64,000 bases of DNA from Waterburya sp. (lineage in GTDB: Bacteria; Cyanobacteriota; Cyanobacteriia; Cyanobacteriales; Xenococcaceae), in assembly GCA_965217895.1 (NCBI GenBank), contig CBDCJV010000002.1, forward strand, positions 448,001 through 512,000, in the 5' to 3' direction. The notes under the pieces are model-generated. The model was not told where the DNA came from and ran no database searches. It saw only the letters and a program-made list of their open reading frames with translations. This document shows positions 3,294 to 43,119 of this stretch, piece by piece. How positions within the stretch are numbered: the stretch's first letter is position 1; every line of letters begins with the position of its first letter. A program made the translations under genes and the position numbers.

Positions 3294-5441
3294 ATGAATA
3301 CAAATTATCCTTCTAAAGTCGCTGATATTGCTCAAAATGCTCAATTACATGAGCTGTATGAAGTAGATGAAGGAGGGATGAACTTAGGTGCGCTTAAAGA
3401 AATCCTGTGGAGGCAATTGCCCTTAATTGCTAGTGTTACAGCAGTTGTATCGTCTTTAGCTTTTGTACAGGCCATGAATCGTACTCCTAATTATCAAGCT
3501 AGTTTTGAAATTCTCTCCGAACCAGTAACCATTGAGACTAAAGTAAGTTCTTCTGGTTCTCAGTCAAGAGAAACAACTGAAGCAATAACGTCAGTAAAAT
3601 TAGATGACGTACAAATAAAAACTCTAAAAAGCCCTAGGATAATTGATTCTGTTGTCGAGCAACTGCAACCAGCCCATCCTGATATTAATTATGCTTCGAT
3701 TGTCAGTACTTTAGATCTTAAAACTACTAACGAAGAAGAAACTGTTTTAGAAGTTGCCTACAAGCATCCTGACAGTAAACTTGTTAAAGATGTCTTAGAT
3801 ACTTTGGCAACAGTTTATTTAGATTATAGTTTGCAAAGACGGCAGTCTGGCGTGAGCCGAGGTCTAGAATTTTTGGATCAGCAAATTCCCATATTACAAG
3901 CAAAAGTTGACCAGCTCAATTTGCAAATACAACAAATAAGACAAAAACATAATTTTATCAAACCAGAAATTCAAGGACAAAACTTATCAGTGAGACTTGA
4001 AAATCTGACGCAAGAGCAACTACTCAATAAATCACAATTAAATAAAGCAAGATGGAATGCCAGCGTTGTTCAAAAAGAAGTGGCACAAGAACCAACCAAA
4101 GCCACTACAGCAATGCAGTCTGGTACAGATCGCTACAACAAATTATTAGAGGATTTGCGAGGAGTAGATCGTCAAATAGCTAACAAATCGACAGTTTTTA
4201 CCAACGATAGTGCCGAATTACAAGTTTTGTTTGATGAAAAAAAAGCAATTCTCTCTTTAATTAATCGAGAAGGAACAGTTGTCGAACAAAAACTAGCTGA
4301 TCAAATTTCTGCTCTAGAAGAGCAAAATAAAGCTATCGACCGAGACATAATAGATCTCAAACAAGAAATTAAGGATTGGTCGGGAGTTACTCAAGACTAC
4401 GATGATATTCAGAGGCAAATAACTATTACCGTCAAACAGCTTAATGAACTTTTAGTTCAAAGAGAATCTTTAAAAATCGAGTCCGCTCAAAAAGAAGCTC
4501 CTTGGAGATTGTTGACCGCCGTAGGAGATCCGCAAACTGATTCGGCGAGTAAAGTTAATTTCGTTATTTTAGGTACGCTTTTAGGTTTATTGGTAAGTAT
4601 AGGTCTGGCGATCGCTTTAGATAAATATCAAAATATTGTCCATACCTCATCTCAGGTTAAACGAGTTACCAATCTGCCAATACTAGGAATGATTCCCTTT
4701 GATCGATCTTCGACAAAATTATCCCTAGAACAAGAAATGAGCTTATTAATGGAGTCAGATAAATCGCCAATCCAAGTATACAAGGAAAATTCTGCTTTAT
4801 CTAACATTCTAACTTTATCAATCGAACCTTTTCGCTTTTTTGGTGCCAATTTAGGTTTATTTGAAGCAAATAGTACGCTTCGTTCTTTCATAATTACCTC
4901 TGCTATGCCTGGAGAAGGAAAGTCCACTGTAGCACTCAATCTAGCAAAAACCGCCGCCATAATGGGTAAGCGAGTTTTGCTTGTAGATACGGATATGCGG
5001 AGCATTAGCAGAATTAGCACGAGTATTCCTTTAGCTAACAGCTTCGGTTTGACAGATCTGGTTTTAAAACCAAATTTGAATTTGCGTGATGTCGTTCAAA
5101 AATCTTTCTTAGAAGAAAATTTATTTATTCTTTCTAGTGGTAGTCAAGCTATGACTACCGACCCAGGAAAATTATTTGTATCAACAAAAATTACAGAGGT
5201 AATGAAAACAGCCGAACAAAATTTTGATTTAGTTATTTATGATGTATCTTCTGTTGTTGACTATGCAGATGTTAGTTTGTTGGCTACAAAAACTGATGGT
5301 GTTGTTTTAGTGACAGGATTAGGTAAGTTGCAAAACACAAATTTAAAAGAGGCTATGAACCGATTGAATGTATCTAACATTCCCGTTCTTGGCATAGTCG
5401 TCAATCAATTGCTGAGGCGAAACAGCAAGAGTGCAGTTTAG
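3294..5441 (+). CDS. wzc: Wzc/GumC-type polysaccharide co-polymerase / BY-kinase-like protein
   Basis: Two TM segments flank a coiled-coil periplasmic region. Cytoplasmic Walker A SAMPGEGKST, A' LLVDTDMR and terminal VLGIVVN. Confidence 0.85.
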   Translation: MNTNYPSKVADIAQNAQLHELYEVDEGGMNLGALKEILWRQLPLIASVTAVVSSLAFVQAMNRTPNYQASFEILSEPVTIETKVSSSGSQSRETTEAITSVKLDDVQIKTLKSPRIIDSVVEQLQPAHPDINYASIVSTLDLKTTNEEETVLEVAYKHPDSKLVKDVLDTLATVYLDYSLQRRQSGVSRGLEFLDQQIPILQAKVDQLNLQIQQIRQKHNFIKPEIQGQNLSVRLENLTQEQLLNKSQLNKARWNASVVQKEVAQEPTKATTAMQSGTDRYNKLLEDLRGVDRQIANKSTVFTNDSAELQVLFDEKKAILSLINREGTVVEQKLADQISALEEQNKAIDRDIIDLKQEIKDWSGVTQDYDDIQRQITITVKQLNELLVQRESLKIESAQKEAPWRLLTAVGDPQTDSASKVNFVILGTLLGLLVSIGLAIALDKYQNIVHTSSQVKRVTNLPILGMIPFDRSSTKLSLEQEMSLLMESDKSPIQVYKENSALSNILTLSIEPFRFFGANLGLFEANSTLRSFIITSAMPGEGKSTVALNLAKTAAIMGKRVLLVDTDMRSISRISTSIPLANSFGLTDLVLKPNLNLRDVVQKSFLEENLFILSSGSQAMTTDPGKLFVSTKITEVMKTAEQNFDLVIYDVSSVVDYADVSLLATKTDGVVLVTGLGKLQNTNLKEAMNRLNVSNIPVLGIVVNQLLRRNSKSAV

Positions 5442-6009
5442 TAATTTTCTTAATAAGGCGATCGCAAAGATCGTTAACTTTGATTGAGAAAAGCAGAATT
5501 AATAATTCTCAAATGAACATAGATTTAGCAATAAATGCTTATTTTTTTCAACAGTGGAGAAATTTTAAACTCTATTTTAATGTCCTTAAACATTAAAATA
5601 GGGAAAAAAGAATATAGATTTCTTAGATGTGCGTATTTTTGTTATTTAGATTTGATAAGCTTATTGACATTGGTAACTGAGTTCTGTATTATCCTTATAA
5701 TAATTGATTTTTTTAGCTTAAAATCTAAAAAAATGCGATTAAAAACATTTAGAGATTTGAGAAATCCTCAGAAGAGAAAATTGGCTTAACTGTTATTGGC
5801 GATCGCCTTGCTTTTTTATTAAGTTGATATCACTCTCAAATGAACTAAAAAGCAGAATGCGATTGAGCGACACTTCTTTTTAAATAAAAAAACCCAATCT
5901 CAAACTATCTTTAACACGATTTATTTCTTTAAACCGTCTTGAAATTATTTTTAGACAGCTTTTTATTTGGAGAATACATTTAAATCGAATTAAATTACAT
6001 CTATATAAA

Positions 6010-7215
6010 ATGCAATTTTCAATACCAACTAAATACCTATTAAACACCCCAATAACTTGTCTTACTTTTGAAGAACAAATTATGTTGATGCTTCGATGGG
6101 CAAAAACAAAAGAAAGTAAAACTATTTGTTTGGCTAATGTTCATATGCTGATGGAAGCGTACTGGGATAGAAATTTTGCTGGGGTTCTAGAAACAGCAGA
6201 TATGGTAACTCCCGATGGAATGCCTTTGGTTTGGATGTTACAAAAACTAGGAATATACAACCAAAATCGAGTAGCAGGATTAGATGTCTTTATGAACCTC
6301 TGTGAACTAGCTCAACAATGTCAAATTGGAGTTTATTGTGTTGGCTCACAGCCTGAAGTGTTAGGCAAAATGAAGTATAGGCTAGAAGAGGAATATCCAG
6401 TATTACAAATCGCTGGGATGGAAACTTTACCGCAGATTACTATTGAAGAAATTGTCGAGGATGTAGACTATCCTTTAATCGATCGCATTAATCAAAGTGG
6501 TGCGGGAATAGTTTTTGTCTGTCTTGGATGTCCCAAACAAGAAATTTGGATGAACCAACACCAAGGAAAAATTAATGCGATCATGGTTGGTGTTGGGGCA
6601 GTTTTTTCCATGTATGCAGGTTTAAATCCACGAGCTCCCTATTGGCTTCAAAGAGCAGGGCTAGAATGGCTGTATCGCTTGCTTCAAGAACCTCGAAGGC
6701 TCTGGTATCGTTACGGTAAAACTATTCCTCCTTTTTTATACTTGGCAGTTCGACAATTACTGATTTCTTATCAAGATAATCTTGAACGAGTTCGTCGGAG
6801 TTTTGTTGATGGAAACATGGTAGTCGATATTACTGGTTTGAATAATTCACCAATTTTACTTGGTGAAATTTTGGTAAGACAGAGTTTGTTGACGCAAGAA
6901 CTATTAGACAAAGTTTTATTAGAGCAAGCACAAAACTCTTCTTTAAAACTTGGCGAAATTTTAGTTAAAAAAGACCTAATTTCTGTCGCTCAACTTCGGT
7001 ACTATCTCAAAAATCAAAGAATCAGGCTGGGAGAAATATTGGTGGAGCAAAAAGTGATTACTTTGGCAAAAATTAATGCAATTATTAGGCTTCAAAAGCG
7101 TAAAGACAAAAAACTTGGCGAAATCTTAGTCGAGCTGAACATGGTGTCCAAAAAGCAAATAGAAATGGCTCTTATGGAACAATACTGGCGACGAAAAGGT
7201 TTGTGGCTTAGATAA
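6010..7215 (+). CDS. WecB/TagA/CpsF glycosyltransferase fused to four C-terminal MshEN-like repeats
   Basis: TPDGMP, RVAG, LGCPKQE, GVGAVF and RAP..GLEWLYRLLQEPRRLWYRY are WecB/TagA hallmarks. Four 24-aa xLGEILV...Q repeats follow. Confidence 0.88.
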   Translation: MQFSIPTKYLLNTPITCLTFEEQIMLMLRWAKTKESKTICLANVHMLMEAYWDRNFAGVLETADMVTPDGMPLVWMLQKLGIYNQNRVAGLDVFMNLCELAQQCQIGVYCVGSQPEVLGKMKYRLEEEYPVLQIAGMETLPQITIEEIVEDVDYPLIDRINQSGAGIVFVCLGCPKQEIWMNQHQGKINAIMVGVGAVFSMYAGLNPRAPYWLQRAGLEWLYRLLQEPRRLWYRYGKTIPPFLYLAVRQLLISYQDNLERVRRSFVDGNMVVDITGLNNSPILLGEILVRQSLLTQELLDKVLLEQAQNSSLKLGEILVKKDLISVAQLRYYLKNQRIRLGEILVEQKVITLAKINAIIRLQKRKDKKLGEILVELNMVSKKQIEMALMEQYWRRKGLWLR

Positions 7216-7297
7216 AGTAAATAAAAAGTTTCTATGAAAGTAGATCGATTTTTATATTAATAGCTTACGATTCAAGTTAAGTTTTAAACATAAAAAT

Positions 7298-10200
7298 ATG
7301 GCAACCTCTTATAATCAGCAAAATTCACTAACAGAGAAAGAGCAATATCGTCTGTTATTAGAGTGGTCAAGAAATAAAGTTAATTATCCTCAACAAAAAT
7401 CTATTCATCAGCTATTTGCAGAACAGGTAATAAAAACACCTGCTAAAACTGCTGTTATTTTGCCTGAAAATGAATCAATAAAAACTAATCAAATTAATTA
7501 TCAAGAACTCGATCGCCGAGCAAATATTCTAGCAAATATTTTACAAAGGCAAAATGTGCAGCCAGGTACAGCGATCGCCTTAATGATGAATAGATCCCTA
7601 GAATTAATCGTCGCAATTCTGGGCATCCTCAAAGCAGGGGGAGTTTATGTTCCTTTAGCTCCATCTTATCCACAAGAACGTTTGGCGTGGATGTTAGAAG
7701 ATTCGCGATCGCCCATTATTCTGACTCAATCGGCTCTGGTTACTAGTCTCCCTGCTCACGATGCAGAAATTATCTGTTTAGATCGAGACTGGGGTAAAGA
7801 TCTAGAATTAGATACTTGCTTACCATCAATTGAAGTAGATTCTCATAGCCTTGCCTATATCAATTATACATCTGGCTCTACAGGCAAACCAAAAGGAGTG
7901 GCCGTTCCTCATCGTGGCGTAGTCAGATTGGTAATTGGAAGCGACTTTACTCCCTTAGACGGTAACCAAACTCTATTACAGCTTGCTCCCATTTCCTTTG
8001 ATGCTGCTACTTTTGAGATTTGGGGCGCATTACTTCATGGAGGCTGTTGTGTATTATATCCAGATAACGGACTGCCCGATCCCCAGACTTTAAGTAGAGT
8101 AATTAAAGACTACAATGTAACTACTATTTGGCTGACCGCTGCTTTATTTAATACCCTAATTACCGAAGCCCCAGAATGTTTGCAAGGGGTTAAAGAAATA
8201 CTAACGGGTGGCGAAGCTTTGTCAGTAGCTCATATAAAAAGGGCGCAACAACTACTGCCAAATACCCAGTTAATTAACGGTTATGGGCCAACCGAAAATA
8301 CTACCTTTACCTGTTGCTATCGTCTTCCCAACCCTTTAGAAGATAACGTAACCTCAATTCCGATTGGCAAAGCGATCGCCAATACTGAAGTTTATATTTT
8401 AGATACTAAATTACAACCAGTACCCATAGGCGAAGCAGGAGAACTATATATCGGCGGGGATGGATTGGCAAGAGGTTATCTTAATCGTCCTGATTTAACG
8501 GCAGAAAAATTTATTCCTCATCCTTTTAAAGAAGATAATACAGCAAGATTGTATAGGACGGGAGATGAAGTACGCTATTTAGCAGATGGCAATATCGAAT
8601 TTATTGGGCGTTTAGATAATCAAGTTAAGCTTAGAGGTTATCGAATCGAACTAAGTGAAATTGAAATAGCTTTAACTCAACACGATACTATCTTAGATGC
8701 GGTAGTTGTATGTCGAGAAGACAATCGAGGTAATAAGTATTTAGCTGCATACATTACATTCCAAACTAACCAGAAAATAAACGTTGAGCAATTAAAAGAT
8801 TACCTACACTTTAAGCTACCAGACTACATGGTGCCTACCAGCATTATGGTAATCCAGAAAATTCCGCTAACGGTCAATGGCAAGGTAGATCGTCAAGCTT
8901 TACCAATTCCCAATCAAGAAATATTCAGTCAGAGATTACAAATTCCCCAAACAGAAATAGAAAAAAATCTCGCTCGAATTTGGTGTGAAGTTTTAGGTTT
9001 AGAACAAGTCGGTATTGAAGATAATTTTTTCGATCTAGGTGGTACATCTTTATTAGGATTACAATTAATTACGCGAATCCAAAAAAGCTTTGCCATAGAG
9101 TTACGTGCAGTCAAGCTTTATCAATATCCTAATATTTACAAGTTAGCTCAATATTTAGTTGAAAAAGCTAATCAACGATCAACTCAACTTAAAACACAGC
9201 AAAATAAATCAACTAGTCTTTCCGCAGGAATTGCTATTGTTGGCATGGTAGGCAGATTTCCTGGTGCAGGTAGTGTAGATCAGTTTTGGGATAATCTTTG
9301 TCAGGGTGTTGAATCAAATACTTGGTTTACGGATGAACAAATCGATCCCAGTGTCGATCGAGAATTACTGGCCGATCCTAACTATATCCGCGCCAGAGGC
9401 ATTATTGAAGGTGCAGAATTATTTGATGCCAGCTTTTTCAACATTTCTCCGAGGGAAGCTGAAGTTATGGATCCCCAAGCCAGAGTATTTTTAGAGCTTG
9501 CTTATGAAGCCCTAGAAAATGCGGGGTATACAGCCGAATCTTTTGCGGGCAAAATTGGACTATATGCAGGATCGGGGCAAAATACTTATTTTGAAAATCA
9601 TCTTTGCGGCAGAAAAGAAATAATTGATCGCCTGGGTGCTTTCCAGACAATGTTAGCTAATGAAAAAGACTTCGTTACTACCCGTATCTCTTACAAATTA
9701 AACCTTACTGGACCGAGTATTAGTATCAACACTGCTTGCTCTACTTCATTAGTAGCCATCATCCAAGCTTTTCAAGGATTAAAAGCTCGTCAATGCGACA
9801 TGGCATTGGCAGGAGGAGTTTCGATTGGCACGCCTCAAAATCGAGGTTATTTATATCAAGAAGGAGGAATGCTTTCTCCAGATGGACGTTGCCGTCCCTT
9901 TGACGCTAATGGTAGCGGTACTTTGTTTAATAACGGGGCGGGCATTGTCGTCTTGAAAAGAGTTGAAGATGCCCTAGAAGATGGCGATCGCATCTATGCA
10001 GTAATTCGTGGTGTGGGCATGAATAATGATGGTGCGGATAAAGTTAGTTTTACTGCACCGAGCGTCAACGGACAAATGAATGCCATTTTAGAAGCGCAGC
10101 TTAATGCGGGTATTAATCCAGAAACCATTGATTATATTGAAACTCACGGTACGGCTACTCATCTAGGCGATCCGATCGAACTAGAGGCATTAACCCAAGC

Positions 10201-13200
10201 ATTTGGGACTCAAACTGATGCTAAACAATTTTGCGCGATCGGTTCGGTAAAAAGTAATGTGGGGCATCTAGTGGCAGCAGCAGGAGTTACAGGGGTGATT
10301 AAAACAGCTTTAGCTCTTTTTAACCAGAAAATTCCCCCTAGCCTTAATTTTGAATCTCCCAACCCTGAAATCGATTTCACTAATAGTCCTTTTTATGTCA
10401 ACAATCAGCTAGTTGACTGGGAAAAGAAACAAAACCGCCGTCGCGCTGGGGTTAGTTCTTTTGGAGTTGGTGGTACTAACGCTCACATTATTTTGGAAGA
10501 AGCACCTCTGGAAAGTCAAAAGTCAAACGTTAAAAGTCAAAAGGAATTTTGGCAATTACTGTTTATTTCGGCTAAAACTGAAGCTGCACTTCAGCAAAAA
10601 ACCGCACAGCTTCAAACCCATCTGCAACAACACCCCGATCTTAATTTGGCAGATGTGGCATATACCCTACAACGGGGTAGACAGACATTTAACTATCGGC
10701 GGTTTGTTGTCTGTCAGCAACAAGAAGCGGTAACTGCACTCGAAACCCTACCCCCAACTCAGGCTATTACTCGCTATACAGAAAAACGCAATCCCGAAGT
10801 AGTTTTTATGTTTCCTGGTCAAGGTTCGCAGTATGTAAATATGGGAGCTAACCTTTATCGAGATGAACCCTTATTTCGTAATATAGTTGATCGCTGCGCT
10901 CAAATTCTGCAACCACTTCTAGATCTAGACTTACGAGAAATTCTGTATCCTCAAGAACAGAATGAGGCATCGGCAGCCCTACTCAAACAGACAATTTATA
11001 CTCAGCCAGCCCTGTTTACGATTGAATATGCCCTAGCGCAACTGTGGCTGAGTTGGGGAATTAAGCCTGTAGCCACAATCGGGCATAGTATTGGTGAGTT
11101 TGTTTCGGCTTGTTTGGCAGGCGTGTTTTCTTTAGAAGATGCCCTCAAGCTAGTGGCAACTAGAGCTAAAATGATGTGGTCGTTACCACCAGGGGCAATG
11201 CTTTCGGTACGTCTTCGGGCTGCGGAAGTAGAACCATTGCTGACTCCAGAATTAGCGATTGCAGCAGTTAATGGACCATTTCTATGTGTAGTCTCAGGAG
11301 CAAACGAAGCAATTGCCAAACTACAGCAAGAATTAGAGGCTAAAGAGATTGTTTGCAAACTCCTGCACACCTCCCATGCTTTTCATTCGCCAATGATGGA
11401 TGCGATCGTCGAACCATTTGCCGAGGTGGTTCGCACACTTAAGCTCTTTCCTCCTCAGATTCCCTTTGTTTCTAGCGTTACTGCCGATTGGATTACCGAG
11501 TCTCAGGCAACCGATCCCAGCTATTGGGCAAATCATTTAAGAGCAACCGTTAGGTTCGCAGAAGGTATACAAACTCTTTGGCAACAGCCAGAACGAGTGT
11601 TGCTAGAAGTTGGACCTCGTACCACTGCTGCTACCTTAGCCCGTCAACAGGCAAAAGATTTAAAGCAACAAATTGCTATTTCTTCTTTGGGTAGCAAAGC
11701 CAAAGATGACTCAGAATGGGCAGCACTTTTACAGGCTTTGGGGCAACTATGGTTAGCGGGTGTACCTATCGACTGGCAAAGTTTTTATACCAATCAAAAA
11801 CGCGATCGCCTGCCCTTACCAACCTATCCATTTGAACGGCAACGCTATTGGATCGAGCCGCTACCAGCGATCGCCAGTAGCGATGATTCTAGTCCAACAG
11901 CAATTATCTCTAGAGAAAATTCAGTTTCTATTCCCATATCAAAAGAATCAAATATTATTATGTCTAATTCCCGTAAGCAACGTTTGATCCCAATTTTAAA
12001 AGAAGTTCTAGAAGCAACCTCTGGTTTAGAACTAGCTAGTGTAGACGAGTCGATTACTTTTTTGGAGATGGGCTTAGATTCCCTGTCTTTAACTCAAGTT
12101 GCGATCGCTTTAAAGAAAAAGTTCAAAGTAAAAATTGCTTTCCGCAACTTGCTAGAAGACTATCCCAATTTAGATACTCTAGCAGCATTTTTGGATACAA
12201 CCTTACCAGCAGATGCTTTTCCTGCCCCCGAAACAGTTGCCGAGCAACCCGTTTCATCTACGCCAGTGTCAACTATGAATACATCTTTTGAATCAACTAA
12301 CAGCAATGGTAAAGGTAACTATGAACTCAAACCACAGCTAATTGCCAACTCTGAAACATCAAGTGGAATTGAAGCGGTGGTTGCTCAACAGTTACAGATC
12401 ATGAATCAGCAGCTAGAGCTTCTGCGTCAAGGAGGAGTCAGCGTCACACCTTCAACTGTTCCTCAGCAGCCAACCACTACACAACCTAGTATTTCTCCAT
12501 CCCCTGCTGCGCCTGCGGTTAAAACCACTTCTGAGCCAGCTAAACCGCCAAAAATGCACGGGCCTGGAGCCAAAATTAAAAAATCTCAAGACACTACCTT
12601 AAGCTCAGAACAACAGCAGGCAATCGATCGCTTGATCGATCGCTACACAAAGCGCACTCAAGAATCTAAACGTCAAACTCAAGAACATCGTCCCTACCTA
12701 TCAGATCCGCGCACAGTTTCTGGTTTTAGTCCTCTTTTAAAAGAGATGGTTTACCCGATTGTCACAGATCGCTCTGCTGGTTCTCGCCTCTGGGATGTCG
12801 ATGGTAACGAATATATCGATCTAACCAATGGTTTTGGCTTAAATTTCTTCGGTTGGTCGCCAGAATTTGTCAAACAAGCCGTGATCGCTCAAATGGACAA
12901 GGGAATTGAAATAGGGCCTCAATCTCCTTTAGCAGGCAAAGTTGCCAAAATGGTGAGCGAATTTACAGGCATGGAACGGGTGGCATTTTGTAATACGGGT
13001 TCAGAAGCAGTAATGGCAGCTTTGCGTCTGGCTCGTACCGTTACTGGACGTAACACGGTAGCTATCTTTAACGGTGGTTATCACGGCACCTTTGATGAGG
13101 TTATCGTTCGCAGTGGTGCTAACCTCAAATCCTTACCTGCTGCCCCAGGGATTATGTCTTCGATGTTTGAAAATATTTTAGTGCTAGATTACGGCACACG

Positions 13201-14095
13201 AGAATCTCTGGAGATTTTACGTAATCAAGCCGATGACCTAGCAGCAATCATGGTAGAACCCGTGCAGAGTCGCAAACCAGGATTGCAGCCAGTAGAATTT
13301 TTACGGGATGTACGAGAGTTAACCGAAAAGTCAGAAACAGCATTTATTTTTGATGAGGTAGTAACAGGATTCCGCGTTCATCCTGGTGGCGCGCAGGCTT
13401 ACTTTAATATTCGAGCCGACTTGGCAACTTACGGAAAAGTAGTTGGTGGTGGCATACCCATTGGGATTTTGGCAGGAAAAGCCGAGTACATGGATGCCCT
13501 GGATGGAGGCTTCTGGAAGTTTGGCGACAATTCCATTCCTGAAGTGGGTGTCACCTTCTTTGCTGGTACTTTTGTCCGTCACCCCATGGCGTTAGCAGCA
13601 GCGGAGGCGGTGTTGTTAAAACTCAAAGAAGGCGGGGCAGATCTGCAACAATCTCTGAGCGTCAAGGTTGAGAAGTTTGTCAAACACCTCAGACAACATT
13701 TTGCTCACGTCGGCGCACCCATTAATATTGACTATTTTAGTTCCTTCTTCTATGTTACCTATCCTGATGAAGTAACCTATGGCGGTTTGCTGTTTTATTT
13801 GTTGCGCTCAAAAGGAGTTCATATTTGGGAATATCGTCCTTGTTTCTTGACTCTGGCACACACAGATGAAGATATTGAGTTTGTAATCAGGGCATTTAAA
13901 GATAGCGTGGCTGAATTACAAGGGATGGGATTATTGCCTGGGAAAACCGTTGAAACTAACGGCAACGGCAAAAGCGATCGCAATTTTCCGCCTCAACCAG
14001 GTGCGCGTTTGGGTAAAGATCCTCAAGGTAATCCTGCTTGGTATATTCCTGATCTAGAACGCCCTGGTAAGTATTTACAAGTTGGAGGTGTTTGA
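7298..14095 (+). CDS. Hybrid NRPS/PKS: A-T-KS-AT-ACP-class III aminotransferase
   Basis: A: YTSGSTGKPKG, YGPTE, YRTGD, NGKVDR. T: LGGTSL. KS: TACSTS, HGTAT, GHL. AT: GHSIG and HAFH (malonyl type). ACP: GLDSL. Aminotransferase: FDEVVTGFR and TYGKVVGGG (PLP lysine). No KR or DH seen. Confidence 0.95.
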   Translation: MATSYNQQNSLTEKEQYRLLLEWSRNKVNYPQQKSIHQLFAEQVIKTPAKTAVILPENESIKTNQINYQELDRRANILANILQRQNVQPGTAIALMMNRSLELIVAILGILKAGGVYVPLAPSYPQERLAWMLEDSRSPIILTQSALVTSLPAHDAEIICLDRDWGKDLELDTCLPSIEVDSHSLAYINYTSGSTGKPKGVAVPHRGVVRLVIGSDFTPLDGNQTLLQLAPISFDAATFEIWGALLHGGCCVLYPDNGLPDPQTLSRVIKDYNVTTIWLTAALFNTLITEAPECLQGVKEILTGGEALSVAHIKRAQQLLPNTQLINGYGPTENTTFTCCYRLPNPLEDNVTSIPIGKAIANTEVYILDTKLQPVPIGEAGELYIGGDGLARGYLNRPDLTAEKFIPHPFKEDNTARLYRTGDEVRYLADGNIEFIGRLDNQVKLRGYRIELSEIEIALTQHDTILDAVVVCREDNRGNKYLAAYITFQTNQKINVEQLKDYLHFKLPDYMVPTSIMVIQKIPLTVNGKVDRQALPIPNQEIFSQRLQIPQTEIEKNLARIWCEVLGLEQVGIEDNFFDLGGTSLLGLQLITRIQKSFAIELRAVKLYQYPNIYKLAQYLVEKANQRSTQLKTQQNKSTSLSAGIAIVGMVGRFPGAGSVDQFWDNLCQGVESNTWFTDEQIDPSVDRELLADPNYIRARGIIEGAELFDASFFNISPREAEVMDPQARVFLELAYEALENAGYTAESFAGKIGLYAGSGQNTYFENHLCGRKEIIDRLGAFQTMLANEKDFVTTRISYKLNLTGPSISINTACSTSLVAIIQAFQGLKARQCDMALAGGVSIGTPQNRGYLYQEGGMLSPDGRCRPFDANGSGTLFNNGAGIVVLKRVEDALEDGDRIYAVIRGVGMNNDGADKVSFTAPSVNGQMNAILEAQLNAGINPETIDYIETHGTATHLGDPIELEALTQAFGTQTDAKQFCAIGSVKSNVGHLVAAAGVTGVIKTALALFNQKIPPSLNFESPNPEIDFTNSPFYVNNQLVDWEKKQNRRRAGVSSFGVGGTNAHIILEEAPLESQKSNVKSQKEFWQLLFISAKTEAALQQKTAQLQTHLQQHPDLNLADVAYTLQRGRQTFNYRRFVVCQQQEAVTALETLPPTQAITRYTEKRNPEVVFMFPGQGSQYVNMGANLYRDEPLFRNIVDRCAQILQPLLDLDLREILYPQEQNEASAALLKQTIYTQPALFTIEYALAQLWLSWGIKPVATIGHSIGEFVSACLAGVFSLEDALKLVATRAKMMWSLPPGAMLSVRLRAAEVEPLLTPELAIAAVNGPFLCVVSGANEAIAKLQQELEAKEIVCKLLHTSHAFHSPMMDAIVEPFAEVVRTLKLFPPQIPFVSSVTADWITESQATDPSYWANHLRATVRFAEGIQTLWQQPERVLLEVGPRTTAATLARQQAKDLKQQIAISSLGSKAKDDSEWAALLQALGQLWLAGVPIDWQSFYTNQKRDRLPLPTYPFERQRYWIEPLPAIASSDDSSPTAIISRENSVSIPISKESNIIMSNSRKQRLIPILKEVLEATSGLELASVDESITFLEMGLDSLSLTQVAIALKKKFKVKIAFRNLLEDYPNLDTLAAFLDTTLPADAFPAPETVAEQPVSSTPVSTMNTSFESTNSNGKGNYELKPQLIANSETSSGIEAVVAQQLQIMNQQLELLRQGGVSVTPSTVPQQPTTTQPSISPSPAAPAVKTTSEPAKPPKMHGPGAKIKKSQDTTLSSEQQQAIDRLIDRYTKRTQESKRQTQEHRPYLSDPRTVSGFSPLLKEMVYPIVTDRSAGSRLWDVDGNEYIDLTNGFGLNFFGWSPEFVKQAVIAQMDKGIEIGPQSPLAGKVAKMVSEFTGMERVAFCNTGSEAVMAALRLARTVTGRNTVAIFNGGYHGTFDEVIVRSGANLKSLPAAPGIMSSMFENILVLDYGTRESLEILRNQADDLAAIMVEPVQSRKPGLQPVEFLRDVRELTEKSETAFIFDEVVTGFRVHPGGAQAYFNIRADLATYGKVVGGGIPIGILAGKAEYMDALDGGFWKFGDNSIPEVGVTFFAGTFVRHPMALAAAEAVLLKLKEGGADLQQSLSVKVEKFVKHLRQHFAHVGAPINIDYFSSFFYVTYPDEVTYGGLLFYLLRSKGVHIWEYRPCFLTLAHTDEDIEFVIRAFKDSVAELQGMGLLPGKTVETNGNGKSDRNFPPQPGARLGKDPQGNPAWYIPDLERPGKYLQVGGV
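10512..10543 (+). repeat. STRR-like heptamer repeat (AAAAGTC)n inside the KS-AT linker
   Basis: aaagtc aaaagtc aaacgtt aaaagtc aaaag; encodes ESQKSNVKSQK in frame. Confidence 0.6.
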
Positions 14096-14175
14096 TGGAA
14101 GTAAAAGTTTAAAACTATTCCGCTGCATTTTTTTGTTCCAAGGCACTTTTTAAAATATCAAACTTTTTACTTTTT

Positions 14176-15138
14176 ATGTCTTTAGTATTTAGTAATTCAG
14201 TACCTAAGCCAGCTTTACCAAATCAGATCGTCAACAAGAATTCCCAAGACTTCCGCGATAAATTCAACCAAAAATCTTTTGAGTTCTCCCATAATTTGAC
14301 AGGGCATCCTTTATTTGAGATTCCTCGCTTGCTTGAGTTGGCAAATACCATTGCACTCAAATACGATCTTAATAAGGTAGTCTGTTTATCAAGTAACATA
14401 ACACCATCTCAAAAATGGTCAGATATGACTCGTAGTGAGCAAGTATCTGAGGCGATTTCTCACATTGAAGAATCTGGTTCATTAATCTTGATCAAAAGTG
14501 CCAATCTCGATCCAGACTATAAATTTCTAATGAAGCAGATTTTAGTCGAACTGGAAGAACTTACAGGCGTTCCCCTGCAAAAAGAGATTACCTGGGCAGA
14601 AGCATATATATTTATCTCTTCTCCCAATTCAATAACTCCTTATCATATTGACCACGAATCAAATTTCCTGTTTCAAATTAAAGGTGAAAAAGATGTTCAT
14701 CTGTTTGACCAGTCAGATCGTTCAATTCTCACCGAAAGAGAAATCGAAGAATATTTTGCTGGTGATTTGCAAGCAGCTACTTACAAAGAAGAAAATCAAA
14801 ATAAAGCGAATACATACCATTTGATTCCAGGTACAGCGGTTCATCATCCATCTTTAGCCCCACACTGGCTCAAAAATAAAGATCGCGCTTCTGTTTCTTT
14901 AAGTATCAACTTCTGTCTGCGCTCGGTGGATCTCAATGCCAGAGTTTATCAAACCAACCATTTCTTAAGAAAGTTGGGTTGGAATCCAACTCCGCCTCAG
15001 TCTTCGATAATTAAGGATCGAGTCAAAATGATGGCGATGGGCGTTTTTGCGAAAAGTAAACCAGATATTAAGGATGACGTGACTTTTTCTGGCGTTACGC
15101 GCTTTAAAGAATTATCAAAAAAACTATTAAAAAAATAA
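14176..15138 (+). CDS. JmjC/cupin-like Fe(II)/2-oxoglutarate oxygenase (putative hydroxylase)
   Basis: TPYHIDHESNFLFQIKGEK (HxD) plus a distal His in APHW; double-stranded beta-helix pattern. Confidence 0.75.
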   Translation: MSLVFSNSVPKPALPNQIVNKNSQDFRDKFNQKSFEFSHNLTGHPLFEIPRLLELANTIALKYDLNKVVCLSSNITPSQKWSDMTRSEQVSEAISHIEESGSLILIKSANLDPDYKFLMKQILVELEELTGVPLQKEITWAEAYIFISSPNSITPYHIDHESNFLFQIKGEKDVHLFDQSDRSILTEREIEEYFAGDLQAATYKEENQNKANTYHLIPGTAVHHPSLAPHWLKNKDRASVSLSINFCLRSVDLNARVYQTNHFLRKLGWNPTPPQSSIIKDRVKMMAMGVFAKSKPDIKDDVTFSGVTRFKELSKKLLKK

Positions 15139-15144
15139 ATTACG

Positions 15145-16026: not shown

Positions 16027-16072
16027 AAATTGAAGCTGCACTTAAAAAAGATTTTTTAAAATTTAAATACCC

Positions 16073-22209: not shown

Positions 22210-22211
22210 TT

Positions 22212-23579
22212 ATGTTTAAAAATCAACAAAGTTATAAGTTTAGCTTTTTCTTGATACCTTTTGCTTTGATTTTGTTGTATTTGGGCTGGAAAAAATGGCT
22301 AGTAACTGTTCCCAAACCACTACCCGAACAAACTGCTTTGGCGATAAAAAGCAGTCTCAATGGAGGTTCTTATTACGAAATATCTACCTCTGCGGCCAAA
22401 AAAGAAAGCTATTTATCGGCAGATTACCGAATTTGGATTCCCGATGGAGTTAAAAAAATTCGAGGTCTGATCGTCAAACAGCATGGATGCGGTGATGATG
22501 CTGCTGCTACGGGACTAAATCATGCTAACGATCTTCAATGGCAAGCCTTGGCATTGAAACATCAGTTTGCACTTATGGGTACTAGACTGCCGACCGATTA
22601 TCCTACGTGTACGGACAAAGCTATTGCTAACCGAGCTGCTGAAGGTTCTTTTTTAAAAGCGATTAGCATATTAGCACAAAAAAGCGATCGCCAGGAGCTA
22701 AACACAGTGCCTTGGGTAATGTGGGGACATTCTGGTGGAGCAGATTGGGGAACTCAAATGCTCAGACACTACCCCGAACGAACTATTGCTGTAATTAATG
22801 TGCGGTGTGGGGGAATTTCATTAACCTCAGGAAATTCAGAAATACTAAACCTAGATTCAAATTCACAATCAACTTCCCCTTTACTCAAAGTCCCAGTTTT
22901 CTGGTTTATAGGAGATAAAGACCCCTTTGAAAAAGAGTGTAAAAAATTACCCCAGAAAATTTTTTACAAGTTTAGAAAAGCAAACGCACTATGGGCATTG
23001 GCAGTACAGCCCAATGCTGCTCATGAGACTGGGGACAGCAGACTATTGGCTATTCCTTATGTAGATAAGATTATAAGCGCGCGAGTTACAAAAGACAGTA
23101 ACCAACTGCTCCCAATCGATAAAACTCAAGAATGGTTTGGCGATCCTACTACTCATGAAATTGCTCCCATCAACAAGTTTGAGGGCAATCCGCTAAAAGC
23201 AGCTTGGCTTCCTAACGAAGAAACGGCTCGTAAATGGCAAGAATACGTGACTACTGGCAAAATTTCTCCAACTAGCAAACCTAATGTACCAACTAATGTA
23301 ACTGTTACTAGTATTAGTGCTACAGAAAAGGTAATTAAGTGGAATTTTACTCCCGATTTAGAAAATGGCCTGCCATCTTTTCGTATCTATCGCCATAATT
23401 CGCTCATTCAAACTCTCGAAGGACAAAAGCATAATTTTGGCGATGCTCCAGAACCTGCAAATGTTACCTTAGAATTTCGAGATCCAAAAGCTGCTCCAGA
23501 TTCTACTTATACTGTGGCAGCTTTTAATCAATTGGGAGAAAGCGTTTCTGCACCAGCAACATACACCAAAAAACCATAA
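22212..23579 (+). CDS. Membrane-anchored or exported alpha/beta-hydrolase-like protein with a C-terminal FN3-like domain
   Basis: N-terminal hydrophobic segment; QHGCG oxyanion-like motif; WGHSGGA nucleophile elbow; C-terminal PTNVTV...YTVAAFNQLGES beta-sandwich pattern. Confidence 0.6.
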   Translation: MFKNQQSYKFSFFLIPFALILLYLGWKKWLVTVPKPLPEQTALAIKSSLNGGSYYEISTSAAKKESYLSADYRIWIPDGVKKIRGLIVKQHGCGDDAAATGLNHANDLQWQALALKHQFALMGTRLPTDYPTCTDKAIANRAAEGSFLKAISILAQKSDRQELNTVPWVMWGHSGGADWGTQMLRHYPERTIAVINVRCGGISLTSGNSEILNLDSNSQSTSPLLKVPVFWFIGDKDPFEKECKKLPQKIFYKFRKANALWALAVQPNAAHETGDSRLLAIPYVDKIISARVTKDSNQLLPIDKTQEWFGDPTTHEIAPINKFEGNPLKAAWLPNEETARKWQEYVTTGKISPTSKPNVPTNVTVTSISATEKVIKWNFTPDLENGLPSFRIYRHNSLIQTLEGQKHNFGDAPEPANVTLEFRDPKAAPDSTYTVAAFNQLGESVSAPATYTKKP

Positions 23580-23667
23580 TTATTGGAGGTTGATGTTTGC
23601 TATAAAATATCTTTATCAAGCCAGATTTATTGAACGCGATCAACAAAAAAATTATTTTATTTAATCA

Positions 23668-25470
23668 ATGCAATATATACGTAGATTTTTATATTTAAAT
23701 AAAGGCAAAGAAAAAAGCCTTTTCTTGATGACTTTGCTATTTTTGTTGATTTCATCCTTGGAAATGCTGGGAACTGGATTGATTGGACCATTTATTAATT
23801 TAGCTCTCAATCCAAATTCAATTCAACAAAGTAAATGGCTAAGTTCAGTCTTTGACTGGTTTAATTTTGCTACTAATAGTCAATTTTTGCTCTTGTTTGG
23901 AGCTTTTGTAATAGTTGTCTTTTATTTAAAATCATATTTAAGCTTTAATGCCCAAAAATCTGTTTTTAAATTTGGATTTAATCAACAAGGAGAGCTATCT
24001 TCTAAATTAATGCGTGCTTATTTGGCAGCTCCTTATACCTTTCACCTGAATAGAAACAGTGCCGATTTAATCCAAAATATTGTTAACGAAACAGAACGAT
24101 TTAGCAATGGGTTTATGATGCCATTGCTAACTTGTTTTTCTAATATTATAGTTATTGTCGCCCTGGTTTCGTTACTAATAGCAACAGATATAATGGCTGT
24201 AGTAATTATTGCAGGAATTGCCATAATTTCTGTGGCATTATTTTATAGTTTTAAAGATAAAATTGGTCGTTGGGGAGAAGAAGGTTCTGAATCTCGCACC
24301 GAAATGATTCGTCTTATTAATCACAGTTTAGGAGGATTGAAAGAAACTAAAGTTATCGGTTGCGAATCTTATTTTGAAAAGAAAATGCAGGTTCAAATTA
24401 CAAAATTTGCCACAAGTATTAGTTCTGCATTGATTTTTTCTAATTTACCTCGTTATGTGGTGGAAGCCTTTTTAATTACTTTTTTAATTGGTTTTACTTT
24501 ATTATTTATCACAATTAATCGCGGAAATACCCAAAATTTAAGCTCAGTATTGGGTATTTTTGCTCTGGCTTCGATTCGTCTACTGCCAGCAGCAGGAAAT
24601 TTAATTTCTGCTATCAACGGTCTTAAATATCATGCTTATACGGTCGATAAACTTTATTTAGATTTACAAGAAGTTAAAACGGTATCTCCACTAAACAATT
24701 TGAAATCTCAATCTAATCAGATTAAAGTCTTAACTAAAAAAAACGGCGATCGCTTGACAATACCTTTTGACGATCGCATTACTTTAGAGAAGATTAGTTA
24801 TACATATCCCAATGCTGATAAAAGTTCTCTTCAAGAAATTTCTTTGGCAATCGAAAAAGGCAAGTCGATTGGTTTAATTGGTAAATCTGGGGCAGGTAAA
24901 ACAACTTTAGTTGATGTAATTCTCGGACTTTTGACACCTCAACAAGGAAACATCAAAGTTGATGGTGTTTCTATATACAATGACATAAGTTCCTGGCGCA
25001 ATTTAATTGGCTATGTTCCCCAATCAATTTTCTTAACAGATGATACTTTAGAAAGAAATATCGCTTTTGGTGTTGATGACGAATCGATCGATTTTGCCAG
25101 ATTAGACAAAGCGATCGCCGCAGCCCAGCTAAACGAACTGGTCGAAAGCCTACCCCAAGGGCTACAAACTATGGTTGGCGAACGCGGTGTGATGATATCT
25201 GGAGGACAACGCCAGCGAGTTGGTATTGCCCGCGCCCTTTATCACGAACGAGAAGTTTTAGTGTTTGATGAAGCGACAGCAGCATTAGATAACGAAACGG
25301 AAAGTCTTGTTACCGAAGCAATCAAATCTTTAAGTGGTAAAAAAACGATGATTATTATTGCTCACCGTTTATCAACGCTGAAGCATTGCGATCGTATTTA
25401 TATGCTCGAACAAGGACAAATTGTTAAGTCGGGTAGCTATCAAAAGATAGTATTGGGAATCCAAAAATAA
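23668..25470 (+). CDS. ABC exporter with fused permease and ATPase (HepA/PglK/MsbA-like)
   Basis: N-terminal TM domain; GKSGAGKT; ISGGQRQR; VFDEATAALD; IAHRL. Confidence 0.92.
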   Translation: MQYIRRFLYLNKGKEKSLFLMTLLFLLISSLEMLGTGLIGPFINLALNPNSIQQSKWLSSVFDWFNFATNSQFLLLFGAFVIVVFYLKSYLSFNAQKSVFKFGFNQQGELSSKLMRAYLAAPYTFHLNRNSADLIQNIVNETERFSNGFMMPLLTCFSNIIVIVALVSLLIATDIMAVVIIAGIAIISVALFYSFKDKIGRWGEEGSESRTEMIRLINHSLGGLKETKVIGCESYFEKKMQVQITKFATSISSALIFSNLPRYVVEAFLITFLIGFTLLFITINRGNTQNLSSVLGIFALASIRLLPAAGNLISAINGLKYHAYTVDKLYLDLQEVKTVSPLNNLKSQSNQIKVLTKKNGDRLTIPFDDRITLEKISYTYPNADKSSLQEISLAIEKGKSIGLIGKSGAGKTTLVDVILGLLTPQQGNIKVDGVSIYNDISSWRNLIGYVPQSIFLTDDTLERNIAFGVDDESIDFARLDKAIAAAQLNELVESLPQGLQTMVGERGVMISGGQRQRVGIARALYHEREVLVFDEATAALDNETESLVTEAIKSLSGKKTMIIIAHRLSTLKHCDRIYMLEQGQIVKSGSYQKIVLGIQK

Positions 25471-25485
25471 CCATCATTACTTTAA

Positions 25486-26403: not shown

Positions 26404-26415
26404 ATAATTAGTTTT

Positions 26416-27669: not shown

Positions 27670-27678
27670 GCAGTAAAT

Positions 27679-28926: not shown

Positions 28927-29193
28927 AATCATGAAAGATAAAAAATAATCTTTCTCATAAGACCATTAAGTATTTTATAGTATTATTTTATGTGTCACTT
29001 AATGTAATATGTTTATTAAACTTGGTATTGTGTAAATAGTCCAAACTCTTATTTTTTCTAATTTAAAGTAAATATACTAAAAATTAAAGCCATGTTTAAA
29101 AACTATTAATACGCTAGCTATATTTCGCTCAAATAAAATATATGAACATTTATCAAGCAAAATTTACCCCAACTTATTTTAAGAAATATATTA

Positions 29194-30198: not shown

Positions 30199-30239
30199 CT
30201 AACATGAGGAATTTATAAACTTTGAATAAACCAAAAAAA

Positions 30240-30582
30240 ATGACCCAAGCACGTCAAGCACGTGTTGCCTGGCTGCCTCCTGCCATGGGAACAGGTGGAA
30301 TTTCCTTTTCAGCATATTCTCAGTGAGTTTACCCAAGAATTTCCTGAAACAATCGTCTATACGGGACAATGGCCTGGTTATGCTGCTGGATTTGAAAATA
30401 GTTTTCCAGTTCGAGAAGTTGGTGCAACTAAATTTATCGAGTTGGTAAAAACTGCTCAAGGTTGTAATCTGGGATTTTCTTACGTTTCTCCTAGTATTAT
30501 CGGGCATTTAATTAAATTCAAACCAGACGTTGTTTTTGCTAATACTTTTACCGTCTGGACGACAGTGGCTATTACCTTATAA
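30240..30582 (+). pseudogene. Frameshifted, truncated copy of the 5' end of the GT4 gene at 31681
   Basis: ATG at 30240 reads MTQARQARVAWLPPAMGTGGISF, followed by a +1 T frameshift. From about 30337 to 30570 it is nearly identical to about 31783-32016, then stops. Confidence 0.85.
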
Positions 30583-30607
30583 AAAAAATTAATTTAAAAA
30601 TATTCAT

Positions 30608-31669
30608 ATGCAAATAGCTTTTATTAGTCGTTATCGTACAGAAATCATGGGTATTGCCATTTTAGGGATTCTTTTATTTCATTCAACGCAAATAAATTTT
30701 GGCAATACATTTCCTTTATTCTTATTTAATTACATTAGAATAATTGGTTATAGTGGTGTAGATATATTTTTTTTCGTGTCTGGATTTGGGTTAGTTTTTG
30801 GATGGTTACAAAGAACAAATGAAGTTTTTAAGTTTTATAAAAAAAGGCTTCTAAGAATTTTGCCTGCTTATTGGACTACTCTATTTTTTTATTTAATTAT
30901 TCATCTTACGTATTTCAAGGATTTTAAGATAAAAGGATTTATTGGAGATCTATTAGGGCTTGGTTTTCTGACTTCGCATAGCTACAATTACTGGTTTATT
31001 CCTTCAATTATTGTATGTTACTTAATATTTCCTTGTATTATTTTTTTACTAAATAGAAATATTATTAAACAAAAGTTTATTAGTAATTTCTGGTATACAT
31101 TGCTTTTTTCAAGTACTTTACCTTTATTTTTGTGTTTGGGTGCAATTCTAACTAATAAATATCAATTACTCATTTTTTTGAGTCGTTTACCCAGTTTTAT
31201 TTTAGGCGTAATAGTTGCCTTTTTATATTACCAAAAAAAATACGAACTAAAATTAAATTTATTGACAATAAATTTAATTTTGATTTTGGGTTTTATTGCT
31301 CTATTTATAATTAATTTTTATGTAAACAATGAACTAAAATGGCACTACGGCTTGTTATGGTATCCATTAATATTTTTGACGTTTCCTTTATGTTTGGTTT
31401 TGGCATTTTTTTGCAGTTACATCGACAAAAATTTTGTTTTATTAAAAAATAGTTTATTTTTTTGTGGTAAATATAGTCTTGAGATTTACTTGATACATAT
31501 GTTAGTTTTTGATTTTTACGACGACTTACATACTTTCATTAGTTCTTTTGATTTGCTAGCGATGTTCAATCAAGGAAACATTTTAGTTTATGAAATTCTT
31601 ATTAGTATCTCATTACTATTATCATTTTTTCTCAAAAAATTTACCAGTTTTCTTAATATACCAATTTAG
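30608..31669 (+). CDS. Acyltransferase family 3 (OafA-like O-acyltransferase)
   Basis: R..IMGIAILGILLFH, GVDIFFFVSGFGL, FYKKRLLRILPAY, WFI, GKYSLEIYLIH; multiple TM segments. Confidence 0.88.
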   Translation: MQIAFISRYRTEIMGIAILGILLFHSTQINFGNTFPLFLFNYIRIIGYSGVDIFFFVSGFGLVFGWLQRTNEVFKFYKKRLLRILPAYWTTLFFYLIIHLTYFKDFKIKGFIGDLLGLGFLTSHSYNYWFIPSIIVCYLIFPCIIFLLNRNIIKQKFISNFWYTLLFSSTLPLFLCLGAILTNKYQLLIFLSRLPSFILGVIVAFLYYQKKYELKLNLLTINLILILGFIALFIINFYVNNELKWHYGLLWYPLIFLTFPLCLVLAFFCSYIDKNFVLLKNSLFFCGKYSLEIYLIHMLVFDFYDDLHTFISSFDLLAMFNQGNILVYEILISISLLLSFFLKKFTSFLNIPI

Positions 31670-31680
31670 GAGTTTATTAT

Positions 31681-32844
31681 ATGTCGTTCGAGCTAACGAA
31701 AAATAATCGCATTGCTTGGTTATTACCAGCAATGGGAACTGGGGGAATATCGTTTCAACATATTATTGCCGAATTCGTTCGAGAATTTCCTGAAACAATC
31801 GTCTATACGGGACAATGGCCTGGCTATGCTGCTGGATTTGAAAATAGTTTTCCAGTTCGAGAAGTTGGTGCGACTAAATTTATCGAGTTGGCAAAAACTG
31901 CTCAAGGTTATAATCTAGGATTTTCTTACGCTTCTCCTAGTATTATTGGGCATTTAATTAAATTCAAACCAGACGTTGTTTTTGCTAACGCTTTTACCAT
32001 CTGGACGGCAGTGGCGATCGCACTGAAGTTTTTATTTGGCTGGAAAGTAATTATTGTTTATGAAGGCGGATCTCCAGGTATAGACTATCGCAATTCCCCT
32101 TTACGTTTGCGATCGCGTCGTTGGCTGGTGAAATTGGCAGATGCTTTAGTAGTTAATGGTCGATCAGCAAAAGAATATATAGTAGACATATTAAACGCTC
32201 AAGAAAACCGAGTATTTGATCGACCCTTTTTAGTACCAAGTGTTAAAGCTTTACTGCAATATAGCGAAAATGAACCGCCTCAAATCGATATGGCAACCGA
32301 TAAGCCGATCTTTCTTTATGTCGGACAAATTGTTCCCAGAAAAGGATTGAAAGTATTGTTGGAAGCGTGCCTAATTTTGCAAGACTGGGGATACCATGAC
32401 TATACACTGTTGATAGTTGGTGATGGCGATCGGCGTCAGGAATTAGAAGCTTTTGCCTCTAGCAAAAACCTGGACAAACAGATTAAGTGGGTAGGACAAA
32501 TTCCCTATAAATATTTAGGTGCTTATTTTCAGGCAACAGATATTTTTGTTTTCCCAACTTATGAAGATATATGGGGGATGGTATTAACTGAAGCAATGGC
32601 TTTTGGTAAACCAGTTATCTGTTCTCAAGGTGCAAAAGCAGTAGAAATGATTGTTAATGGCGAAAATGGCTTTGTCTTCGATCCAGGCCAATCATTAAAA
32701 CTAGCTGAGTATATGGGTCAGTTTTTAGAAAATCCTCATTTAATTGACTCTATGGGGAAAAAATCCGCAGAAATAATGATCGATCACACACCAGCAAAAG
32801 CAACTCAATCTTTTATTCAAGCATTAAAATTTGTTATTAATTAG
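31681..32844 (+). CDS. Glycosyltransferase family 4
   Basis: YVGQIVPRKG; FPTYEDIWGMVLTEAMAFGKPV. Confidence 0.9.
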   Translation: MSFELTKNNRIAWLLPAMGTGGISFQHIIAEFVREFPETIVYTGQWPGYAAGFENSFPVREVGATKFIELAKTAQGYNLGFSYASPSIIGHLIKFKPDVVFANAFTIWTAVAIALKFLFGWKVIIVYEGGSPGIDYRNSPLRLRSRRWLVKLADALVVNGRSAKEYIVDILNAQENRVFDRPFLVPSVKALLQYSENEPPQIDMATDKPIFLYVGQIVPRKGLKVLLEACLILQDWGYHDYTLLIVGDGDRRQELEAFASSKNLDKQIKWVGQIPYKYLGAYFQATDIFVFPTYEDIWGMVLTEAMAFGKPVICSQGAKAVEMIVNGENGFVFDPGQSLKLAEYMGQFLENPHLIDSMGKKSAEIMIDHTPAKATQSFIQALKFVIN

Positions 32845-43000: not shown

Positions 43001-43046
43001 TGACTTTCCACCAAAAATTTAAATTTTTACTATTTTTTCCACCCAA

Positions 43047-43080
43047 ACTTTAGGAAATAATTGTCAGGAACTTTGCAAGA
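43047..43080 (-). promoter_or_regulatory. Putative promoter: 19-bp motif TCTTGCAAAGTTCCTGACA plus -10 TAAAGT
   Basis: The identical 19-mer also lies upstream of the paralog (45276-45294), with the same 9-nt spacing to a TAnnnT hexamer. Confidence 0.65.
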
Positions 43081-43119
43081 AATAGAATTTTTTGATCGCG
43101 ATCGCCTAAATAAATTGTT

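Follow-up and report, generated by a model that had tools for sequence, protein, structure and literature searches.

What does a peptide-polyketide assembly line do inside a polysaccharide locus? The question is raised by a 64,000-nucleotide stretch of a Waterburya sp. genome (Cyanobacteriota, Xenococcaceae; GenBank assembly GCA_965217895.1, contig CBDCJV010000002.1, forward-strand positions 448,001 to 512,000; hereafter the window, to which all plain coordinates refer), where nonribosomal peptide synthetase (NRPS) and polyketide synthase (PKS) genes lie between wzc and wecB on one side and an ATP-binding cassette (ABC) transporter gene on the other. The genome measures 5.29 Mb in two contigs. 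An earlier note on this DNA had proposed that the product decorates a glycan. Here, we report that the line is an intact member of a widespread uncharacterized family with a probable, non-exclusive link to glycans. We favor, at a probability of about 50%, a reading in which it builds a small carrier-bound diamino-acyl peptide that the terminal thioesterase (TE) hands to a sugar of the polysaccharide repeat unit. The line and the genes within its block are as follows.

7298..14095, + strand: hybrid protein with adenylation (A), thiolation (T), ketosynthase (KS), acyltransferase (AT), T and aminotransferase domains (A-T-KS-AT-T-aminotransferase); AT malonyl-type (HAFH)
14176..15138, + strand: JmjC/Cupin_8 protein, putative 2-oxoglutarate-Fe(II) hydroxylase (PF13621; HxD...H present)
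15145..16026, + strand: TIGR04325 methyltransferase (198 bits against a cut-off of 80)
16073..19345, + strand: NRPS protein with condensation (C), A and T domains (C-A-T); canonical HHIICDG motif
19342..22209, + strand: TubC_N-C*-T-TE protein (C*, a C domain without its catalytic His); no A domain, T serine present
22212..23579, + strand: alpha/beta hydrolase with HGC and GHSGG motifs, an N-terminal hydrophobic helix and an FN3-like C-terminal domain

In the hybrid protein, the KS Cys/His/His residues, both carrier serines and the pyridoxal phosphate lysine are intact, and TIGR01733, a model of amino-acid adenylation domains, matches the starter at 448 bits (cut-off 317). Its code, DAFWLGGTF(K), is valine-type, occupies positions consistent with an LgrA alignment and is identical to the Val code listed for MlcM in the available text of one report (PMC9113097). 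The closest named PKS homolog is that of Myxosarcina sp. GI1 (84% over the C-terminal half). The cupin protein has weak Protein Data Bank (PDB) matches to YxbC and FIH. The second A code (16073..19345), read from motifs, is DISQITLIW, which we take from code tables to be glycine-like. Only two A domains were found in the 7298-23579 block with Pfam, and the predicted product would join valine, malonate and an amine (3,4-diamino-5-methylhexanoyl) to a glycine-like residue, possibly with hydroxylation and methylation. Near the locus no trans-acting A domain for the last module was found, three unrelated A-T-TE type genes lying elsewhere in the genome; a phosphopantetheinyl transferase (PPTase) gene is likewise absent from the locus, with three ACPS-family matches elsewhere.

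The last protein differs from a canonical elongating module, which has HHxxxDG and a cognate A domain: its C motif is HCIVCDG, without the catalytic His. Its TE carries type I thioesterase motifs (GLSNGG at residue 717, GHH at 927; PF00975). Orthologs hold HC, HS, HR, HA, NS, DR or PC at the two His positions and some retain HH; the second His is replaced in most close orthologs, and in many cases the last A domain is degenerate or has disappeared. In Rhizobium and Ensifer the proteins are C-T(-TE) with HQxxFDG, and Variovorax has a final C-T without an A domain, followed in V. paradoxus by exosortase-type hydrolases. The missing A domain, the HCIVCDG motif and the degenerate-looking last-module A domains of relatives would suit a decaying relic whose last module has lost its A domain and catalytic His, an explanation that we regard as very improbable. 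No open reading frame (ORF) is interrupted and every other catalytic motif is in place; C* is 97% (G020) and 84% (G021) identical in two genomes, above the neighboring C-A-T protein; and terminal modules without the His or the A domain are found repeatedly in other families and in Rhizobium/Ensifer. Full-length C-T-TE matches at 35-43% identity (G051, G038, G034, G030, G015, and G010) were rejected as orthologs, having canonical HH and no adjoining family PKS. A C* structure model from an 8-row alignment was poor (pLDDT 60.5) and was not used.

The position of the line was compared across relatives. Close homologs of the ABC transporter occur in 29 of 39 genus genomes, and, G020 aside, none of the 11 same-genus ABC loci opened holds the hybrid line. 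The slot between wecB and the ABC gene contains carbohydrate-binding or large secreted proteins (CBM6/malectin or DUF4347) or sugar-nucleotide tailoring genes (G017 and G008); because these are sugar-tailoring or carbohydrate-binding genes, slot cargo in the genus is mostly glycan-related. In G023, Wzc and WecB are 88-89% identical and the arrangement is different. The order PKS, C-A-T, C*...TE, esterase, ABC and two GT4 glycosyltransferase (GT) genes recurs across families in G020, G648, G687 and metagenome locus L203, and partly in G457 and L196, while the glycan cassette (ABC, GT4s, and a gene of the 29194 type) stands without the line in G704, G531, G469, G592 and a truncated G561. In the ABC tree, where one pair on a long branch is unreliable, loci with and without the line interleave, as in the sister pair of G687 and G704. 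Since the cassette exists without the line, the tree interleaves and the same position is used repeatedly, the line is optional cargo: 7298-23579 forms a cassette that may or may not occupy a variable slot in polysaccharide loci of the Wzc/ABC type.

Smaller assemblies occur near such genes. Stand-alone A-T-TE genes adjoin DegT and GMC amino-sugar genes in three same-genus loci (G028, G061 and G035). The combination of a DegT aminotransferase, a GMC oxidoreductase and a stand-alone A-T-TE with a Thr-type code in same-genus polysaccharide loci (L073:1393-7206, L074:4116-10995, and L065:687-10647) is a candidate simpler system for amino-sugar aminoacylation. Rhizobium family loci likewise have DegT and GMC. 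In G640 (L262:6056-9328), a lone C-A-T, 71% identical to that of the window, directly follows wecB and precedes genes for sugar tailoring; the PKS query used brought up no family PKS in that genome. In an Acidobacteriaceae locus (L117:249-21308), separate genes for A, A-T and C-A-T-TE proteins are mixed in among wzc, wcaJ and wecB, and there is no PKS.

How general is the association? The PKS C-terminal half was found in 20 of 401 phylum genomes (E≤1e-200) and C* in 19 of 401 order genomes (E≤1e-135), both lower bounds because few candidates were scored per genome. The tally comprised 35 family loci, 31 with at least 5 kb of flank; C matches of G654, G209, G636 and G046 were not counted as family, and G640 was left out. 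Controls came from 75 loci listed by a C* profile search of genome contigs (generic C-domain patterns), of which 6 were family and the rest controls, 17 with enough non-NRPS sequence. Within the block itself, AT3, TIGR04325, GT8 or a fused GT2 was present in 25/35 family loci (7 of the 10 exceptions belonging to the f26 group), and AT3 or TIGR04325 in 0/17 control NRPS loci. TIGR04325 genes occupy or adjoin family loci as far apart as those of cyanobacteria, Rhizobium and Variovorax. The cluster is also present on a contig labelled Candidatus Gracilibacteria (L149), at cyanobacterial-level identity (PKS, 70%); this contig is possibly misbinned.

A GT2 domain is fused ahead of the A domain (GT2-A-T-KS-AT-T-aminotransferase) in 12 of the 120 best PKS homologs, with DxD in all 12 and 5 confirmed by hmmscan. 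Records with such a fusion include P0222-P0233, L278:6240-13943 and L281:1-8412. When the glycan cassette without NRPS was used as the selection, 3/5 genomes held a GT2-fused family PKS at a second locus, beside WcaJ/Wzx/Wzy-type genes. Eight plasmid regions were opened: four (two Rhizobium, Ensifer, and Variovorax paradoxus) have the same architecture, with an A-less last C-T, at wza/wzc loci; two Variovorax copies have TIGR04325 and at most one GT; and two have no glycan genes. In both Rhizobium loci, a GINT1_N/GH43-like beta-propeller gene lies directly 3' of the C-T-TE gene (L251:26409-28070 and L253:27214-28815).

Several observations weigh against handing the product to a polysaccharide. 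Wzc, WecB, Wzy, Wzx, WcaJ or ABC genes lie within 10 kb in only 11/31 family loci (13/31 counting any GT). Without the window and three glycan-first genomes, the count is 7/27 against 1/17 unrelated NRPS loci (Fisher p=0.10, with kin non-independent), which weighs against a strict glycan link. In the congeneric genome G021, the PKS, C-A-T, C*-T-TE and esterase look intact but have no glycan gene for 10 kb to either side, and the line is missing from the polysaccharide locus of that genome. All 7 g38 genomes have no polymer genes and an adjoining type I secretion pair, a layout repeated in a named Nostoc record (L078); the 6 f26 genomes with enough flank also have none, the f26 group having a different starter, C-A(Pro-type)-T, and no glycan genes. 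Orthologs differ by exchange of the second A domain, with codes of Gly, Thr, Val, Pro or basic type, a pattern also seen for diffusible natural products. One event may underlie the GT2 fusions, and these fit peptide glycosylation as easily as polymer acylation; AT3 enzymes acylate small molecules too, and a free gamma-amino thioester could, on chemical grounds, cyclize to a lactam. To these are added the glycan cassettes without the line.

The line could make a diamino-acyl peptide or lactam that is free and carries no sugar, serving as protease inhibitor, chelator or signal, its place in the slot reflecting an insertion hotspot or co-regulation in biofilm growth. The absence of polymer genes within 10 kb from 20/31 family loci, the free-standing copy in G021, the very different cargo accepted by the slot, the variable A-domain codes and the non-significant enrichment over controls all fit such a metabolite, which would leave unexplained the GT2 fusions, the glycan-type enzymes inside 25/35 blocks, the recurrence of the family at ABC-type and at Wzx/Wzy-type loci as well as in Proteobacteria, and an esterase with relatives in polysaccharide-utilization loci; on balance we think it unlikely. 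The glycan decoration put forward in the earlier note stands in part: the GT2-PKS fusions, the glycan-type enzymes in the block, the two types of polysaccharide locus together with Proteobacteria and the A-less terminal module speak for a functional link to glycan chemistry. The note had named homologs routinely found without glycan genes as evidence against itself, and this is partly what the 20/31 loci show, G021, all 7 g38 and 6 f26 genomes among them.

Sugar could also be added to the product itself. The line would then make the aglycone of a small glycopeptide or primer, whose starter hydroxyl (Thr, or cupin-hydroxylated valine) is glycosylated by the fused GT2, a GT8 or a GT of the locus, giving an exported small molecule or the anchor of a short glycan. 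Starter codes are Thr-type in 11/12 GT2-fused proteins (Thr code DFWNVGMVHK in the available text of PMC9113097), the cupin accompanies 9/15 Val-type starters (one a fragment) and 0/5 Thr-type (p=0.03 from a hand tally with kin non-independent), and GT8 adjoins the cupin in G020, G357, G543 and L192. Set against this, the block of the window itself has no GT, its GTs and ABC belong to a polymer locus known without the line, and one GT2-fused protein has a Val-type code. We hold this alternative to be rather unlikely, yet a slightly better candidate than the free metabolite; jointly, the two glycan-linked readings (polymer substituent, and glycosylated small product or primer) are likely.

The transfer of a diamino-acyl peptide to a polysaccharide repeat unit, which we prefer, further draws on the mostly glycan-related slot cargo, the recurrent gene order, the second loci of the glycan-first genomes, the plasmid copies at wza/wzc loci, the esterase homologs next to SusC/SusD and the A-T-TE genes next to amino-sugar genes. 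The steps would run as follows. The first A domain would load valine, KS-AT would add malonate and the in-line aminotransferase would yield 3,4-diamino-5-methylhexanoyl; the cupin may hydroxylate and the methyltransferase may methylate, acting either on this unit or on a sugar. The C-A-T protein would append a glycine-like residue, and the A-less, His-less C*-T-TE, without elongating, would relay the chain to the TE, whose inferred acceptor is a hydroxyl or amine group on a nucleotide sugar or on a lipid-linked oligosaccharide. The decorated unit would be flipped by the ABC transporter and polymerized and exported by Wzc with the Wzy-like protein, and an outward-facing esterase would trim or re-transfer the tag.

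The predicted structure of this last protein (22212..23579) is an alpha/beta hydrolase with a beta-sandwich (pLDDT 92.5). Top Foldseek matches were PahZ1, esterase D and feruloyl esterases (E ~1e-8 to 1e-9, 11-16% identity), the Atlas places it with clusters of the polyhydroxybutyrate (PHB)-depolymerase type, and it is likely extracytoplasmic. Among esterase homologs in metagenome loci (at least 41% identity, at least 3.5 kb), 10/15 adjoin the NRPS/PKS family; three distant ones lie beside SusC/SusD with glycosidases and esterases.

The remainder of the polysaccharide locus in the window comprises the following.

408..2785, - strand: two GT4 glycosyltransferases (PF00534), the divergent left arm of the locus
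3294..5441, + strand: Wzc-like co-polymerase (PF02706) with a Wzz domain, two transmembrane (TM) segments and Walker A, without a C-terminal Tyr cluster
5664..5692, + strand: sigma-70-like site (11/12 matches) within the wzc-wecB gap
6010..7215, + strand: WecB/TagA/CpsF glycosyltransferase (TIGR00696 and NF053729, both above cut-off)
23668..25470, + strand: PglK/HepA-like ABC exporter, the conserved transporter of such polysaccharide loci
25486-26403 and 29194-30198, + strand: two putative GT-A fold ORFs (DxD-like motifs and context)
26416-27669 and 27679-28926, + strand: GT4 genes (Pfam)
30262..31669, + strand: duplicated GT4 5' fragment and low-GC AT3 (OafA-type) acyltransferase
31681..32844, + strand: GT4 glycosyltransferase, the last co-oriented gene

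Pfam and NCBIfam agree with the genes, + strand positions and identities given in the earlier note, and the tiny spacings that it reported are borne out (4-nt overlap at 19342/19345, 2 nt at 22209-22212 before 22212, and 6 nt at 15138-15145 before 15145). From wecB (6010) to the GT4 end (28926), all gaps are at most 88 nt, the larger gaps being 568 (wzc-wecB), 267 and 409 nt; with a maximum of 88 nt, a single predicted transcript from wecB to 28926 is plausible. The site at 5664..5692 is a possible start of this transcript; sigma-70-like sites in the whole region were not above chance (11 against a shuffle mean of 15.8). The Wzc-like protein scores 107.3 bits against a TIGR01007 cut-off of 108.05. 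WecB/TagA is fused at its C terminus to two MshEN-type cyclic di-GMP (c-di-GMP) motifs, which suggests c-di-GMP control of this polysaccharide; full-length WecB/TagA homologs (~400-430 aa) recur in the genus.

PglK and HepA, named in the note for the ABC exporter, are its best matches, but both fall below equivalog cut-offs (NF050066, 312 against 1000 bits; NF045513, 280 against 725 bits); judged by these scores, the protein is taken to work like PglK/HepA and is not classed as either. The glycosyltransferase block stands for the GT4 genes, whereas Pfam, NCBIfam and the PDB gave no match for 25486-26403 or 29194-30198, which are putative on their DxD-like motifs and context. The acyltransferase counted into the block is there (AT3, 30608-31669), but its GC content is 0.25 against 0.39 for the genome, a 91% identical duplicate lies upstream of it (30307-30572 against 31753-32018, the 5' end of the GT4 at 31681), and it is missing from the near-identical G020 locus. 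On these sequence features it is a recent strain-specific insert and thus not a conserved partner of the line.

The GT4 pair at 408..2785 is also present in loci of many relatives, and beyond it the left arm continues on the - strand past the window start with an AT3, a pectate-lyase-like protein, a methyltransferase and an 11-TM Wzy-like ORF. The locus has Wzc, GTs and ABC, the polymerase candidate being the 11-TM ORF, which has no family match; no Wzx or WcaJ-type gene lies in the locus, copies being found elsewhere in the genome. Farther along the window are two DUF347 repeat genes around an unannotated 409-aa ORF (42239-45222), an HTH_3 and IrrE-like M78 peptidase pair (45414-46451), an SMC-like AAA ATPase of 687 aa with a DEP-domain protein after it (48364-51150) and an IS66 transposase remnant (60165-60599).

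If true, the proposed transfer would mean that assembly-line enzymes build tags for an exported polysaccharide. Amino-acid substituents on cyanobacterial sheaths and on rhizobial exopolysaccharides would then become genetically accessible, it would be understandable that solvent extracts may miss a widespread orphan family, and His-less condensation domains would have a new role. We venture further, tentatively and at somewhat less than even odds, that cross-phylum NRPS/PKS cassettes are programmable acyl donors for surface polysaccharides, in which A-domain swaps change the tag and C*-T-TE is repurposed for transfer, giving cationic, possibly cross-linkable, esterase-edited exopolysaccharides. 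Culturable non-pathogens carry the family (Rhizobium sp. SL42 and CCGE532, and Variovorax paradoxus), so that direct testing is possible.

A literature search, with most subscription papers and MIBiG outside its scope, yielded no product or mechanism for the family, in line with the earlier note, which knew of no assigned product. In the text available, the unknown hybrid families of Calteau 2014 (PMC4247773) come without the gene content that a match would require, and the accessible parts of PMC4558948, PMC4062626 and PMC9324945 contain no match to the family. The note's remark that the architecture may not be unique is confirmed by the spread of the family. Orphan NRPS/PKS-glycan clusters have also been published, without a product in the available text. 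One is a small conserved Roseobacter cluster of NRPS, PKS, glycosyltransferase and PPTase genes (PMC4337385), alike, as described there, in its NRPS, PKS and GT set, the window locus having no PPTase. Another is a 72.8-kb PKS-saccharide-NRPS hybrid cluster of ~50 genes in Gloeocapsopsis sp. UTEX B3054 (PMC6513891), which by its description similarly interleaves cyanobacterial NRPS/PKS with saccharide genes and is far larger.

Among systems of known function, McyE and the MycA-ItuA-BamA modules share with the window line a KS-AT-T-class III aminotransferase followed by C-A-T (BamA match, 37% over the C-terminal half), and the aminotransferase is in-line, as in McyE/MycA, with KS, AT, carrier and aminotransferase III in one polypeptide and catalytic residues present. 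McyE/MycA-type lines have a fatty-acyl or polyketide starter. The window line differs in starting with an amino-acid A-T, in having one further elongating module and an A-less, His-less C*-T-TE, and in its polysaccharide-locus setting; with an amino-acid starter and only two A domains, it does not belong to the iturin/mycosubtilin, microcystin or microginin pathways, whose peptide lines have many modules. Dlt D-alanylates teichoic acids, and Pks13 performs a thioesterase-type acyl transfer onto trehalose. The delivery logic of both, from a carrier-bound acyl or aminoacyl group to a sugar or glycopolymer, resembles the proposal, whose cargo would be a peptide-polyketide of several units; by sequence, the window TE matches Pks13 TE structures in the PDB, among others. 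Pfam matched neither MBOAT (DltB) nor DltD among the scanned locus genes, which sets the locus apart from Dlt-type systems. A chemical precedent is the type B flagellin peptidylamido-glycan of Clostridioides difficile, in which a short peptide is amide-linked to an amino sugar; in the available text of that report (PMC5207245), an acyltransferase and a D-alanine ligase, rather than an NRPS, are credited with it, and the glycan is that of a protein rather than an exopolysaccharide.

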